NCBI GenBank assembly: GCA_964493715.1
Contig: CAZBPC010000056.1
Span: 1-21,817, forward strand
From: an uncultured archaeon
GTDB taxonomy: Archaea > Asgardarchaeota > Lokiarchaeia > Sigyniarchaeales > SOKP01
Reading direction: 5' to 3'
Length of the DNA: 21,817 nucleotides
The notes beneath the pieces are model-generated. The model did not search any database. It saw only the letters and a program-made list of their open reading frames with translations, and was not told where the DNA came from. Position 1 is the first letter of the stretch, and each line of letters opens with the position of its first letter. The translations under genes were made by a program, and so were the position numbers. Positions 4,025-9,788 of this stretch are shown piece by piece.

Positions 4025-5308
4025 ATGGCAAAAACGGATTATTTTATAGGAGAAGCCCTTCTGGGTGCTGAAGAAAACATAGCGCATATTGATTTGTTAA
4101 TCGGTTCAAAGGATGGGCCAGTTGGAATCTCCTTTGCGAATGCCCTTAGTGCACCATCAATGGGGCATGGGAGATTATTAGCATGTATTCGACCTAATTT
4201 GTTAACTAAGCCGATAAGTTTAATAGTCCCCAAAGTCACGCTCTCAAAGATGGAAGATTCTAATAAGATTTTTGGTCCCGCCCAAGCCGCTGTTGCGAAG
4301 GCTATTGCAGATGCAGTAGAAGAAAATCTCATCCCCATGAATAAACTCGATGAGTGGTTAATGATTGTGAGTGTATTTATCCATCCTGATGCAAAAGATT
4401 ATAGGAAAATCTATCAATATAATTATGGAGCTACAAAATTAGCAATTTCAAGAGCCTTGAAAAATTATCCTCCTATTGAGAAAATTTTTTATGATAAAGA
4501 TCGAGCTAAACATCCAGTTGCTGGAATGAAAGTACCGAGGTTATGGAGGCCTCCCTATATACAAGTAGCTTTAGATCATCCAGATATAGATCATGCTTTA
4601 AAGGTTGTTAGTAATTTACCGAAGAGTGATAGGATTATTTTAGAAATTGGAACACCATTTCTCAAGAAGTATGGAATGGAAGCGATAAAAAAGATTAGAG
4701 AAATTGCTCCACAGAAATTTATTGTAGCGGATCTAAAAACTCTGGATGTAGGTAAGTTAGAAGTGGATTTCGCTTTTGATGCAACAGCAGATGCAACCGT
4801 TGCAAGTGGTTTAGCAGCTCCTTCATCAATTGATAAATTCCTTTTAGAAGCTAATCGCATGGGTATCTACGGTTTCGTAGATACAATGGAAGTAGAGGAT
4901 CCTGTTACAAAATTAAAGTCATTGAAACATATTCCTGATGTTATCATTTTACATAGGGCAATAGACGTGGAACAAGGTTCTGTAAGTCAATCTTCTGATG
5001 CAGCACAAAAAGCAAGATGGGCAGTAATTCCTAAAATAAAGGAACTTTACAAGGATCAAAAATTAGCATCAGGACGAGATCGCGTTTTAGTAGCTGTTGC
5101 TGGCGGAATAGAGCCCAACACTGCAAAGTATGCTTTAGAAATGGGTGCTGACATACTTATAGTTGGCAGGTTCGTCACGTCCTCAAAAGATGTTGAAAAT
5201 TCCATGCGTAGATTACTTAACATTATTCCAGGATATTCTGATATTGACTTAAAACGAATCCATTCCGAAGATGACGATAATTCAGCTAGTATGCCAAAAG
5301 GAGAGTAA
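4025..5308 (+). CDS. fae-hps: Bifunctional formaldehyde-activating enzyme / 3-hexulose-6-phosphate synthase
   Basis: Fae domain: GEALLG...AHIDLLIG.KDGPVG...FGPAQAAVAKA...YNYGATKLAI. Hps domain: RLWRPPYIQVALD, EIGTP, ADLKTLDVG, LHRAID, VAGGI, IVGR. Confidence 0.95.
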   Translation: MAKTDYFIGEALLGAEENIAHIDLLIGSKDGPVGISFANALSAPSMGHGRLLACIRPNLLTKPISLIVPKVTLSKMEDSNKIFGPAQAAVAKAIADAVEENLIPMNKLDEWLMIVSVFIHPDAKDYRKIYQYNYGATKLAISRALKNYPPIEKIFYDKDRAKHPVAGMKVPRLWRPPYIQVALDHPDIDHALKVVSNLPKSDRIILEIGTPFLKKYGMEAIKKIREIAPQKFIVADLKTLDVGKLEVDFAFDATADATVASGLAAPSSIDKFLLEANRMGIYGFVDTMEVEDPVTKLKSLKHIPDVIILHRAIDVEQGSVSQSSDAAQKARWAVIPKIKELYKDQKLASGRDRVLVAVAGGIEPNTAKYALEMGADILIVGRFVTSSKDVENSMRRLLNIIPGYSDIDLKRIHSEDDDNSASMPKGE

Positions 5309-6394: not shown

Positions 6395-6733
6395 TTAAAA
6401 ATTTTTTCGAATTTCGTCTAACATTTCTTTAGTTGATGGTACTTTATCAAAAGTCATCTTTAAATTATCGCAGAAATAATCTTCACAAAAAGCACAATTT
6501 TGGAATCCTTTCTCTTGACAACAACTTTTTATGGGGCATTCTTTGCACCAGCTAAAAATTCTTCCCTCCCTATTACAACCATCGCAATATATATCCTCAG
6601 GTTTAAACGATAATGATTCAGTTGACCATTCTTTTGCAACCTTTTCAATTTCCTTAAAATCTTCCTTTTGAGTAGCTAAATATGCAGGACACTCTGAACA
6701 ATCAAGTCCACAATATGCAATTATTTTACCCAT
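6395..6733 (-). CDS. DUF3795 Cys-rich (putative metal/Fe-S) protein
   Basis: AYCGLDCSECPAY...CDGC...C.IK.CC..KG..NCA.C..Y.C pattern. Start at ATG 6733 after the SD GAGGT. Confidence 0.85.
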   Translation of the reverse strand: MGKIIAYCGLDCSECPAYLATQKEDFKEIEKVAKEWSTESLSFKPEDIYCDGCNREGRIFSWCKECPIKSCCQEKGFQNCAFCEDYFCDNLKMTFDKVPSTKEMLDEIRKNF

Positions 6734-6784
6734 ATTTAATACCTCATTTAATTTTTTCATTTTATTTCATATTTTAACTAAATC

Positions 6785-6812
6785 GTTTGATCTCGAACGT
6801 TCGATTGCGAAC
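6785..6812. promoter_or_regulatory. Tandem palindromic operator (GTTCG-N4-CGAAC x2), probable MarR site
   Basis: GTTTGATCTCGAAC (6785-6798) abuts GTTCGATTGCGAAC (6799-6812). It is GC-rich within AT-rich DNA and lies about 25 nt downstream of a minus-strand TATA box. Confidence 0.75.
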
Positions 6813-6834
6813 CAATAATATTAAGATCTCCATA

Positions 6835-6842
6835 TATTTAAA
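6835..6842 (-). promoter_or_regulatory. Putative TATA box of the DUF3795-PNPOx-MarR operon
   Basis: TTTAAATA on the minus strand, correctly spaced upstream of the operator. Confidence 0.5.
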
Positions 6843-7128
6843 CTTAACTTAATTCTGACGAGTGAAAAAACAAGATAAAAAACTAATATTTAATCTAATA
6901 TACAATGAATGGAGGGAAAAAAAAATAGAAATTGATAATCCTTTAATAATATTGACCGAAAATTACTGTTTGAATAATAATCTATATCAAGCATTATGAG
7001 ATTCTTGATATGTTTTAACATTATAATTCGCTTCATTTACATTAAAAAAGAAATATTTAAAAATGAAATCGCGTAACATTAAAGTATTAAATCTTAATTT
7101 TTAAAAGAATAAAGAGAGGTATTATCTA

Positions 7129-7236
7129 ATGGCAAAAAAGAAAGCACCGGCAAAAAAACCCGCAGCACCAGCTAAGAAAAAAGCTCCGGCTAAGAAAAAA
7201 GCTCCAGTAAAGAAGAAGGCTCCAACCAAAAAATAA
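7129..7236 (+). CDS. 35-aa Lys/Ala/Pro-repeat basic micro-protein (histone H1 C-tail-like)
   Basis: MAKKKAPAKKPAAPAKKKAPAKKKAPVKKKAPTKK*. SD GAGAGGT ends 8 nt before the ATG, TATTAAAT lies at about 7085, and a T-tract follows at about 7262-7285. Synonymous codons vary between repeats. Confidence 0.88.
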   Translation: MAKKKAPAKKPAAPAKKKAPAKKKAPVKKKAPTKK

Positions 7237-7532
7237 CATGCTAAAATGGAAGCATTATAAGTTTATCTTTTTTATTTTTTATTTATGAATATATAATCGC
7301 TCTAAAACATCCTAATCTTAAATCTGGTTTAAAAATGATATCTTATATAAAGATTTAGATTACGATATAAAATACTTGCCTATTCTCACATTCATCGATT
7401 TAATTAATCATTATACAATTAATGATAAAATGGATAAAATATAACAAAATTGCAATAGTTGAACAACTCATTTGCTTAAAAAATTATCCTAATTGCTTAG
7501 TTATATTAAAAAAAGAAAGAAATAAAAGAAAT

Positions 7533-9788
7533 TTACTTTATTGGTCGACTATTTGCTTGGAAAATTGGACCGATAAATTGCGAATATAATTTCGCATATG
7601 AAGCTTGGTTTGAAACCACGCTTATCATTTCAGATTCATTATCTGTAAATGGACCAATAATCACTTCTTCGGCATCTCGGGTGACCGCATAGAAATCGCC
7701 TTGAGTATTAAGCTGTCGGAATTGAATATTACCTAAACTCATCATCTTACGAATAATATCTCCATATTGGTCCATTGGAAAATGACTTGTAAGCATGAAT
7801 CGTGCCGCTTTCTTTTGAAAAGCAAATTCACTGACAACTTGTAAAACTTCTGGGATAACGACTGGTGTCACGATAATGACAGAAGATTTTGTCCTATAAA
7901 TCGCGTCTTTAATGGCAGATACCATCGCATCCCTACCAATTACTTGCCAGGTGGTAATTTCAGAAATCTCAGGGAGCGCACTCGAAGCGTTAAAAATATC
8001 CTTCAATTTATCTTCATTTTGTTCTGACAATTCCGTTCCATCATCAATTGAATTCATGAATTGGAGCGTGAAATCAGCAATTGCATCCTTGATATTTTGT
8101 GCGGTGTCCTTAGTAGTGTTTGATAAGCTATTTTGCAGTGTTTTAGCATTTTCTTCATATTTGGATTTATGATCACTGAGCATTTCACTTAATGTTCTAT
8201 CTAAATCCGCAGATTCATCTCCCCATAGGCTGATTTCAGCGGTAATTTTATCAGAGATATCACGTTTTCCTACAATAAATTTATCATCCGTATCCCTGAT
8301 CCAATCTTCTTTAATCTTCTTTATGTCGGTATCAAATTCTGTATAATGTTTAAGAGAATCATCCTTATGTCGAGTGATAGCTTCATTATATTGCCTATGA
8401 TGTTGCTGAATAGAGCTTTCAAGTGAATCTTTCAACTTTATGGTAGTACTGGAACAATCTTTTATTCCGTTTTGTAGTGTAGTATCAACTTCACCGGCCA
8501 TGTCTGTTGCTAATGTTTCTAACTGTACGTTAATAGTTTCTTGAGCTTTATGATCTAACTCTGTTGTCTCAGTTCCGAGATTTTCATTTTCTCTGGAAAT
8601 AATGGTAGTTACATCCTCTTTAATATCATCAGTAGTTTTGCGCGTATCTTTTATATAATCTTCAGTTGTTTTAATGAAATCATCTTTCATGGGCTCTGTA
8701 AAGGTGAGAATGTTTTGAATTGTAGTTTCATGACGTGCTTTAAATTTTTTCTTCTTACCCATCCAGAAAAAGCCCTTCTTCGCCATTTCTCCTGAAAAAT
8801 CAGTAAATCGATTCGCATGTTCGAGGAGGTTGTCAATTAAGGTTAGTGTCATGCTCTTGAAATCATTTGATTGATCATTTAAGATTCGATGCCGTTCATC
8901 TACTGTTGCTTTTAAGTTAGTTTGAAGAGTCTCAGTTGTATTTTTCACGTGAGTAGCGTGTTCATTTAATAGATTAGATATCCTTTGTTTCAGATCAGTA
9001 ACTATCTTATCCATGCGTTCTAAATATTTCTCGAGAATTTGTTCCATGCGAGGTTTCAAGTCATTTGCAATAGTTTTATGACGATCCACATGTTCATCAA
9101 GATCTTGCTTTAACTCTTTTTCGATATTTTCAACTCGGCTTGAAAAATCAGATAATAAATCAGCAACTAATTTAGTTAAGTTCTCTTTTGTTGTATTGAC
9201 TTGAGATTCGTTTTCTTTTATCTTTGTGGCACTAATGTTTTTTAAATCTGAGTTTAGCACGTTTAAAATTGAATGAGTGTTTTCTTCAAGGGTTTTTGAA
9301 GTGTCAGTAAAACGATTTCTAGCTAAATTTATTTTTTCTGCTTTATAATTGCTTTTAGTATCAGAATCTTCAAAGAATTTTTTCAATTGTCGATCTACAG
9401 CAGTCACTACTTCAGTTATGCTCTTATCTTGGATTGATTCTAGTTTTTCAAACCTACTTGCTTGATCAGCTAAAATCCTATCCTTGATTTGAGCAATTTC
9501 ATTTCTAAAAATCTCGGATTCTGATGTAAATAATTCAAAAAATGGTTCAAGTGGAATGTATCTATCTACAATTCCAGGCACATGCTTTAAAAAACCTTTT
9601 TCAACTAGCTGATTTGTTTCTTCAACGACCTTTTCGTAAGTTAAATCCTGATAATCATCGGTTAATGTGAGATATACTTCCGAAGAAGTTGCTCTTGGCA
9701 CTCTTAAATAACCAAGATATATAAGGATTTGTTCTTCTGTAAAACCATAACGAGTAAAAACTTCCTTAGTGAATTCCTTTAAACTCAT
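7533..9788 (-). CDS. TrmB-like protein: N-terminal wHTH, about 530-aa coiled coil, C-terminal TrmB effector/PLD-like domain
   Basis: N-terminal YGFTEEQILIYLGYL...L.EKGF....RYIPLEP (TrmB wHTH pattern). C-terminal TWQVIGRDAM...I.RTKSSVII.TP...RDAEEVIIG (TrmB C-domain pattern). The central region is helical and low in Gly/Pro. Confidence 0.8.
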   Translation of the reverse strand: MSLKEFTKEVFTRYGFTEEQILIYLGYLRVPRATSSEVYLTLTDDYQDLTYEKVVEETNQLVEKGFLKHVPGIVDRYIPLEPFFELFTSESEIFRNEIAQIKDRILADQASRFEKLESIQDKSITEVVTAVDRQLKKFFEDSDTKSNYKAEKINLARNRFTDTSKTLEENTHSILNVLNSDLKNISATKIKENESQVNTTKENLTKLVADLLSDFSSRVENIEKELKQDLDEHVDRHKTIANDLKPRMEQILEKYLERMDKIVTDLKQRISNLLNEHATHVKNTTETLQTNLKATVDERHRILNDQSNDFKSMTLTLIDNLLEHANRFTDFSGEMAKKGFFWMGKKKKFKARHETTIQNILTFTEPMKDDFIKTTEDYIKDTRKTTDDIKEDVTTIISRENENLGTETTELDHKAQETINVQLETLATDMAGEVDTTLQNGIKDCSSTTIKLKDSLESSIQQHHRQYNEAITRHKDDSLKHYTEFDTDIKKIKEDWIRDTDDKFIVGKRDISDKITAEISLWGDESADLDRTLSEMLSDHKSKYEENAKTLQNSLSNTTKDTAQNIKDAIADFTLQFMNSIDDGTELSEQNEDKLKDIFNASSALPEISEITTWQVIGRDAMVSAIKDAIYRTKSSVIIVTPVVIPEVLQVVSEFAFQKKAARFMLTSHFPMDQYGDIIRKMMSLGNIQFRQLNTQGDFYAVTRDAEEVIIGPFTDNESEMISVVSNQASYAKLYSQFIGPIFQANSRPIK

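Follow-up and report, generated by a model that had tools for sequence, protein, structure and literature searches.

A conserved lysine-, alanine- and proline-rich micro-gene of Lokiarchaeia encodes a candidate nucleic-acid-binding polycation

A 35-aa ORF in the window (the whole 21,817-nt stretch of DNA that was analysed) is, judged from its sequence and that of its relatives, a real protein-coding gene, and it is presumably expressed. The host is a Loki-type Asgard archaeon, as the initial annotation had supposed, and belongs to the GTDB order that also holds Ca. Lokiarchaeum ossiferum. The product, MAKKKAPAKKPAAPAKKKAPAKKKAPVKKKAPTKK, consists almost entirely of Lys, Ala and Pro (K/A/P). 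In the reading that we propose, and hold at about even chances, this micro-protein works as a free polycation, binding DNA or the histone-DNA fibre and aiding its compaction; its disorder, its DNA binding and its effect on compaction are predicted properties.

The micro-ORF and its expression signals

The micro-ORF was identified from the ORF list of the window and its translation, and runs from ATG to TAA (Table 1). The micro-protein contains 16 Lys, 10 Ala, 6 Pro and one residue each of Met, Val and Thr (46% K, 29% A, and 17% P), with no Asp or Glu. This recount agrees exactly with the length and composition given in the initial annotation, and the mixed synonymous codons described there were also found: Lys is encoded by AAA (10) and AAG (6), Ala by GCA (5) and GCT (5), and Pro by CCA (3), CCG (2), and CCC (1). 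Neither a signal peptide nor a hydrophobic segment for export or membrane insertion was seen on inspection of the sequence. The micro-ORF sits within a 772-nt gap between a DUF3795 gene and the gene for a 751-aa protein. Its GC content is 41.7%, compared with 24.1% for the surrounding gap and 31% for the whole genome. When all frames of the 3.68-Mb genome were filtered for K/A/P-richness, two passed, the micro-ORF and a tailed histone (contig C39). That just these two frames passed genome-wide rules out a chance frame. Across the tandem repeat, two further frames (35 and 37 aa) are open on the minus strand, as expected for repeat DNA, and the codon-position variation among orthologues agrees with the plus-strand K/A/P frame. 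A look-up of sequencing runs that contain the stretch listed no RNA run. In DNA contigs from four runs, which were short, low-depth fragments from the host and related organisms, differences within the ORF were mostly at third positions, with one V-to-A and one A-to-S replacement.

Table 1. Micro-gene, its signals, and neighboring genes in the window (positions count from the first nucleotide of the window; negative offsets are relative to the ATG)
Feature	Position	Strand	Basis or remark
Micro-protein CDS, 35 aa, K/A/P	7129..7236 (stop TAA 7234-7236)	+	ORF, orthologues, codon-position test
Imperfect 18-nt tandem repeat inside the CDS, unit = one AKKKAP hexapeptide	7164..7224	+	Tandem Repeats Finder: period 18, 3.4 copies, 83% matches
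Purine-rich BRE-like stretch and TATA box (TTTAAAAA from 7056, 73 nt before ATG), presumed promoter	7044..7064	+	TTTAWAW position kept in relatives
Second TATA-like heptamer, TTTAAAA, at -29	7100..7106	+	Box near -29 to -31 in 8/40 loci only
Shine-Dalgarno-like GAGAGG, -15 to -10, 9 nt before ATG	7114..7119	+	Similar motif in relatives
Two T6 runs, 31 and 38 nt past the stop, presumed archaeal oligo-T terminator	7268..7284	+	T run in relatives
Fae/Hps fusion	4025..5308	+	Formaldehyde-activating enzyme and OMP-decarboxylase family
DUF3795 gene, Cys-rich	6395..6760	-	
Gene for 751-aa protein	7533..9788	-	Long coiled-coil-like middle; sub-threshold apolipoprotein matches only

The gene had been credited with a Shine-Dalgarno motif, a TATA-like box, and a T-rich terminator of its own. 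All three were present, and their positions proved to be conserved across the 40 distinct stand-alone loci described in the next section. In 38 of the 40 loci, a TTTAWAW box lies between -73 and -86, most often at -81, and its promoter role is presumed from archaeal promoter architecture. Of the two TATA-like boxes of the window, it is the upstream one that keeps its position. The heptamer at -29 is probably not the promoter, because its position is not conserved and because a transcript starting there would lose the conserved Shine-Dalgarno motif. A GGAG/GAGG/AGAG/GGTG motif lies no more than 22 nt from the ATG in 32 of the 40 loci; the remaining eight, which belong to the third repeat subtype, carry AAGGGAA instead. 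A T run of at least six nucleotides follows within 100 nt past the stop in all 40 loci and presumably acts as the terminator. The micro-gene is monocistronic. Against a role as a leader peptide, a reading that was rejected, stand the convergent orientation of the next gene in the window, downstream genes that vary by species, and the T run that always lies between. A search of Rfam with positions 6600-7700 returned nothing at E ≤ 1.

Across the loci, the flanking genes encode DUF3795 proteins, a methyltransferase, a Rad51-like ATPase, and unknowns, none of which bears a chromatin or ribosome annotation. Partial synteny was seen in close relatives only, where an unknown 105-122 aa gene lies ~299 nt upstream; an unknown 128-aa gene recurs as well, also in the genus of the window. 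The Cys-rich DUF3795 gene adjoins the micro-gene both in the window and in locus L063 (6759-7166, -), and in L087 a 141-aa ORF located 85 nt past the micro-gene is related to the L063 copy by BLAST. The orientation and side of the DUF3795 gene vary, and the window copy did not cluster with the L063 and L087 copies at E 1e-5. This adjacency is probably a coincidence of a multi-copy family. The other genes of the window include HVO_0163-type regulators and the Fae/Hps fusion listed in Table 1.

Stand-alone relatives and selection on the peptide

The initial annotation had suggested a search for a conserved ORF in relatives. Protein and pattern searches recovered 40 distinct stand-alone loci, with products of 27-38 aa that start with MAKK[K/A/R]AP; since the census rests on sequence patterns, its counts are lower bounds. 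The pooled composition of the 40 loci is 50% K, 28% A, 18% P, and 2% G; V, T, S, R, and N each stay below 1%, and D and E are absent. Carriers make up 16 of the 41 genomes of the window's genus (g1), 23 of the 53 genomes of the sister genus g22, and one of the six genomes of g15. Further stand-alone copies were found on four metagenome contigs and in one unplaced MAG (L063). With the exception of this MAG, all 40 distinct loci fall in one GTDB family (f1) of Lokiarchaeia. The window ORF has the properties of the f1 micro-proteins, namely a length within 27-38 aa, the MAKK[K/A/R]AP start, at least 80% K/A/P, and the KK end, together with their signals (TATA at -73, GAGAGG at -15 to -10, and T6 at +31). 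The ATG and the terminal KK-stop are kept in all stand-alone loci.

The individual searches differed in their reach. Apart from the window's own genome, true homologues came out of a protein search of 41 relatives in two cases (G015 and G007); their stand-alone products have 29 and 34 aa, and their neighbours differ. The other matches among the 10 of 41 "matched" genomes were discarded, as six "39-aa" matches lay antisense inside a 750-aa ORF and two lay in larger or N-masked frames. The exact KKKAPAKKKAP pattern was present in five of the 41 genomes of the genus (reversed control, 0), and a looser pattern (up to three mismatches) matched in 86 of 398 Asgard genomes (control, 0). Among 84 of the matching places that were listed, at least 27 were stand-alone ORFs of 27-37 aa, every one of them in f1; one was an 80-aa variant from f1, five had no frame that passed the filter, and the others were K/A/P tails of larger proteins. 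The N-terminal pattern, applied across the genus of the window, added eight more loci of a third repeat type.

A profile built from nine sequences found no stand-alone copy in five genomes of the same order (four closed, one that of L. ossiferum). Within its own genus, the micro-gene is missing or was not found in 25 of the 41 genomes, and the non-carrier relatives include genomes scored as 100% complete. The micro-gene is therefore dispensable and lineage-restricted. We take it to be a derived, lineage-specific innovation and not an ancestral linker histone, because it was found in f1 only and not in the five genomes of the same order, while the tailed histone is widespread in Asgard archaea.

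Several single loci deserve mention. The CDS and upstream DNA of L119 (G200, g15) and L148 (G267, g22) are identical across two genera, and may represent a shared or mis-binned contig. MAGs labelled "Hermodarchaeota" or "Odinarchaeota" (L023 and L043; compare G247 and G243) belong to g22, within the family that holds the Loki-type genomes; how far the gene has spread can therefore not be judged reliably from submitter labels. In the genus of the window, L150 (G016:C64:1-942, -) encodes an 80-aa relative that starts with MAKKTTVRKRPPAKK, contains KKRPPAKK/KKKPTTPKK repeats, and has a non-repeat C-terminal end. This form may be an expanded or read-through micro-gene.

The variation among orthologues is concentrated at third codon positions. 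In 13 orthologues of exactly 37 codons, there were 4, 8, and 29 variable columns at codon positions 1, 2, and 3, respectively, and the pairwise differences numbered 83, 195, and 994. The differing codon pairs of this set comprised 903 synonymous and 229 non-synonymous pairs. In a 34-codon group (n = 3), the variable columns were 1, 1, and 15. Identity was 85% in the CDS, 73% in the 40 nt upstream, and 58% in the 40 nt downstream. This third-position bias shows purifying selection on the K/A/P frame, and free slippage is disfavoured because the length is fixed at 37 codons in the 13 species. The view that selection acts on the protein, earlier based on the mixed codons of the window ORF, is thus borne out by its orthologues. 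The repeat register differs by lineage (KKKAPA; KKKAPAKKAGP; KKKPAPKKKAAP), with composition and length held. Since the register drifts while length, charge, and composition are kept, fuzzy electrostatic binding fits better than binding to a fixed pocket.

Resemblance to tailed histones and to known polycations

The back-translated sequence MAKKKAPAKK gave 92 matches in a search of one genome per species over ~185,000 species. Among these were 36 Asgard histones of 77-94 aa (MAKKKAPAKK[K]SEGYIAKAPIRRLMKKEG..., one from L. ossiferum) and 12 Asgard stand-alone ORFs. The rest were bacterial HU proteins with such tails (seen in Pseudomonadales and Luteimonas), other proteins, and a few short bacterial ORFs. 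The ten N-terminal residues of the micro-protein are thus identical to the N-terminal tail of those 36 Asgard histones. The window's genome encodes five histone paralogues, one of which is tailed: it has 84 aa and the tail MAKKSAPAKKAPAKKAKSETY, and matches PF00808 over residues 24-82 (E 7e-10). The tail of this histone (MAKKSAPAKKAPAKKAK...) is unlike the micro-protein at residue 5 and beyond residue 10. A single MAG can carry both a tailed histone and the micro-gene. In L040 (CAZALK010000007.1), a tailed-histone start, MAKKKAPAKKKSEGYIAK, meets a stop after 20 codons; the histone gene may be frameshifted or broken here, or the assembly may be wrong.

In four genomes, the DNA upstream of the micro-gene was no more similar to that upstream of the histone gene than shuffled sequences were (z -0.9 to 1.5), and a recent duplication of the 5' end of the histone gene, promoter included, was rejected on this basis. 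The downstream regions gave z scores of 0.6 to 7.3, which probably reflect merely the T runs that both have. The decapeptide in common with the histone tail could stem from an old duplication or from convergence. Convergence could explain it because other Asgard proteins, e.g., an AAA_5 ATPase, also begin with MAKKKAP, and because the upstream DNA is dissimilar. The link to chromatin through the N-terminus of the tailed histones is suggestive.

Tailed histones (HLoB of Loki, HMpB of Hod), as described in the main text of a 2026 preprint (10.64898/2026.07.02.735847), resemble the micro-protein in their K/A/P composition, in being lysine-rich and disordered, and in occurring in the same organisms. 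In contrast to them, the micro-protein has no histone fold (~65 aa, three helices) and no PF00808 match, and the tail is its whole product. Its K/A/P run extends over 27-38 aa, compared with tails of ~10-25 aa in the histones seen, and the promoter and leader of the micro-gene are unrelated to those of the histone gene. The Lys-rich MAKK... N-terminus that defines the tailed subclass (HLoB/HMpB) is the sole feature of this subclass that the micro-protein has in common. According to the same main text, the tail peptide of residues 2-10 of a Loki tailed histone is mostly methylated, with the initiator Met removed, and an Asgard acetyltransferase acetylates tail peptides in vitro (10.64898/2026.07.02.735847). 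The terms "standalone", "small protein", "linker histone", and "KKAP" do not occur in this main text, and its supplements may list small acid-extracted proteins.

Searches of Pfam-A (hmmscan), NCBIfam, and PDB at E ≤ 10 gave no match to the micro-protein. A phmmer search of 1.84 billion representative proteins gave none at E ≤ 0.001; a query this short and low in complexity is expected to find nothing, and the result does not prove absence. The exact sequence was absent from a collection of 15 billion proteins, in keeping with its earlier description as unannotated; five micro-proteins were looked up in this way, none was present, and no gene caller reports the micro-gene. When the 43-aa stop-to-stop frame was used in a word-index protein search, two proteins were returned (E 5.4 and 7.5). 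The N-terminal pattern matched eight times in viral contigs, and none of these matches was a K/A/P-only micro-ORF. The IMG/VR loci L237, L238, L240, and L244 have a common 40-aa ORF with a MAKKKAPAKK start and a six-lysine end that lies amid small lysine-rich ORFs and is distinct from the Asgard micro-protein. The literature searched contained no description of an archaeal K/A/P peptide that stands alone.

The initial annotation had called the peptide H1-tail-like. The likeness holds for the Lys/Ala/Pro-rich composition of the basic H1/H5 tail and for composition only. Kinship to H1 or to chlamydial Hc1/Hc2 did not emerge: the winged-helix domain of linker histones H1/H5 (PF00538) is missing, no family, including PF07432 and PF07382 (which we take to be those of Hc1 and Hc2), was matched at E ≤ 10, and the nearest sequence is the N-terminal tail of the tailed histones. 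Like the micro-protein, the H1 C-terminal domain is K/A/P-dominated, disordered, and cationic, with presumed charge neutralisation of DNA. The micro-protein differs from H1 in having no winged-helix domain and no detectable sequence kinship, and in being far shorter. As far as sequence comparison can tell, it is not an H1 homologue; it would be an analogue rather than an ancestor of H1, because it is confined to one archaeal family. Kinetoplastids have a tail-only H1. In bacteria, H1-like lysine-repeat proteins include Chlamydia Hc1/Hc2, the tail of mycobacterial HupB/Hlp, and Pseudomonas AlgP. They have similar Lys/Ala/Pro repeats that bind DNA or other polyanions, but they are longer or fused to folded domains and belong to another domain of life. 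KAPAKK-type motifs are described for mycobacterial Hlp (PMC2409343).

Proposed function and alternative readings

The proposed action of the micro-protein starts from its physical character. A polycation of 35 residues and charge +16, with no hydrophobic core and a proline at about every sixth position, would be disordered, judging from its composition. It presumably cannot fold alone because of this charge, the lack of hydrophobic residues, and the regular prolines. The micro-protein would be a free counterpart of the K/A/P tail which, in these archaea, is joined to histones and further nucleic-acid binders, and its des-Met N-terminus would equal that of the tailed histones, the tail of its own genome's histone differing at residue 5. 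It may then neutralise charge non-specifically on chromosomal DNA or the histone-DNA fibre, and, as a mobile counter-ion, promote compaction in the way of the H1 C-terminal domain, without kinship to H1.

Fused K/A/P tails in Asgard archaea were seen on histone, Alba (N-terminal), RNA polymerase subunit D (C-terminal; the protein has a 4Fe-4S insert), an aIF2-gamma-type GTPase (N-terminal), uL18, eL32 (HhH-eL32), and eS25. They also occur on an FKBP, a HEAT-repeat protein, and an AAA_5 ATPase (fused-tail loci: L158, L163-L166, L169-L174, L175/L176/L185, L186, L190, L179, L193, and L207). The tail thereby appears to be mainly an appendage of nucleic-acid binders. Going by composition alone, RNA is just as plausible a target, as ribosomal proteins and a translation factor carry such tails too. 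The lack of a chromatin link among the flanking genes counts against a chromatin role.

A micro-protein associated with RNA or the ribosome, bound to rRNA in the manner of eL41, bS22, or bL37 or coating other RNA, is the alternative that the initial annotation had named, and a rather unlikely reading. Very short, very basic stand-alone proteins have repeatedly proved to be ribosomal, and the tails on uL18, eL32, eS25, and the aIF2-gamma-type GTPase point in the same direction. The description of eL41, bS22, and bL37 in PMC10085706 is of proteins of ~24-40 aa that are highly positive (55-65% positive residues in bS22 and eL41) and easily missed in annotation. However, these proteins are Arg-rich, helical, and conserved in sequence, whereas the micro-protein has no Arg and no hydrophobic residue, is proline-rich and repeat-built, and varies in register; a proline at every sixth residue also runs counter to the helix described for bS22 (PMC10085706). 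No ribosomal family, eL41/bS22-type families included, was matched in Pfam or NCBIfam at E ≤ 10. In addition, both register and length (27-38 aa) drift between genera, and the micro-gene was not found in most relatives, including the 100%-complete genomes, unlike what is seen for a structural component of the ribosome.

The identity of the ten N-terminal residues with those of the tailed histones opens further readings. The micro-protein might act as a histone tail in trans, i.e., as a free peptide that carries the N-terminus of the tailed histones and whose methylation or acetylation is governed by the writers and erasers of those histones, so that its charge state sets the packing of histone and DNA. 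We consider this unlikely; if true, it would make the micro-protein a regulated analogue of linker histones that arose in Asgard archaea independently of H1. Alternatively, it could mimic the histone tail as a free substrate, competitor, or sink for tail-modifying enzymes or readers and so tune the modification of tails, which would be compatible with DNA binding. The reported methylation of the Loki tail peptide 2-10 after removal of Met, and the acetyltransferase activity on tail peptides in vitro, favour such a mimic (10.64898/2026.07.02.735847), but the reading is purely inferential, and the mismatches to the histone tail of its own genome (residue 5 and past residue 10) weigh against it. 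We regard it as quite unlikely. An unstructured peptide of charge +16 would bind any dense polyanion, and no neighbouring gene indicates chromatin, so that polyphosphate, acidic lipids, acidic partner proteins, or a role in lysine storage or buffering come into question as well. Nothing speaks positively for these targets, the peptide has no signal peptide or hydrophobic segment, and we hold them to be improbable.

That the micro-ORF is non-functional is very improbable; it would then be what repeat expansion has made of a leftover 5' end from a tailed-histone gene, or a frame open by chance in a repeat rich in lysine codons. The low-complexity tandem repeat with several open frames, the patchy occurrence, and the silence of gene callers would suit such an origin. 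They are outweighed by the third-position bias and the exact 37-codon length in 13 species, the position-conserved TATA, Shine-Dalgarno, and terminator signals across 40 loci, the ATG and terminal KK-stop that are always kept, and the upstream DNA that is unlike that of the histone gene.

Asgard chromatin is being actively studied as the nearest model among prokaryotes for how eukaryotic chromatin arose, and the tailed, modified, and very abundant Asgard histones have only just been described. A conserved tail-only gene would be an unrecognised component of chromatin or of other nucleic-acid complexes in these archaea, one that escapes gene callers, domain databases, and standard tryptic proteomics. 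It makes testable whether lysine-rich tails act in trans and whether they serve as common substrates of tail-modifying enzymes. Three points set this case apart: an N-terminus identical to that of the tailed histones, a census of 40 or more loci within one family, and selection proven at the codon level.

Together with similar bacterial mini-genes, the micro-gene suggests that oligolysine micro-proteins form a class that has been neglected. Stand-alone ORFs of 22-28 aa with a MAKKKAPAKK start were observed in high-GC Chloroflexi/Dormibacteraeota (Dormiibacterota; L057, L100, L077, L108, and L109, and L236 from a metagenome), and look like an analogous family of unannotated micro-proteins. They resemble the archaeal micro-gene in having their own signals, in encoding nearly pure Lys plus small residues, and in being unannotated, and differ from it in sequence and lineage. 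Their signals are a perfect AAGGAGG Shine-Dalgarno motif, a conserved leader (GGCTACC...GTTGCC...), and a GC-rich hairpin terminator.
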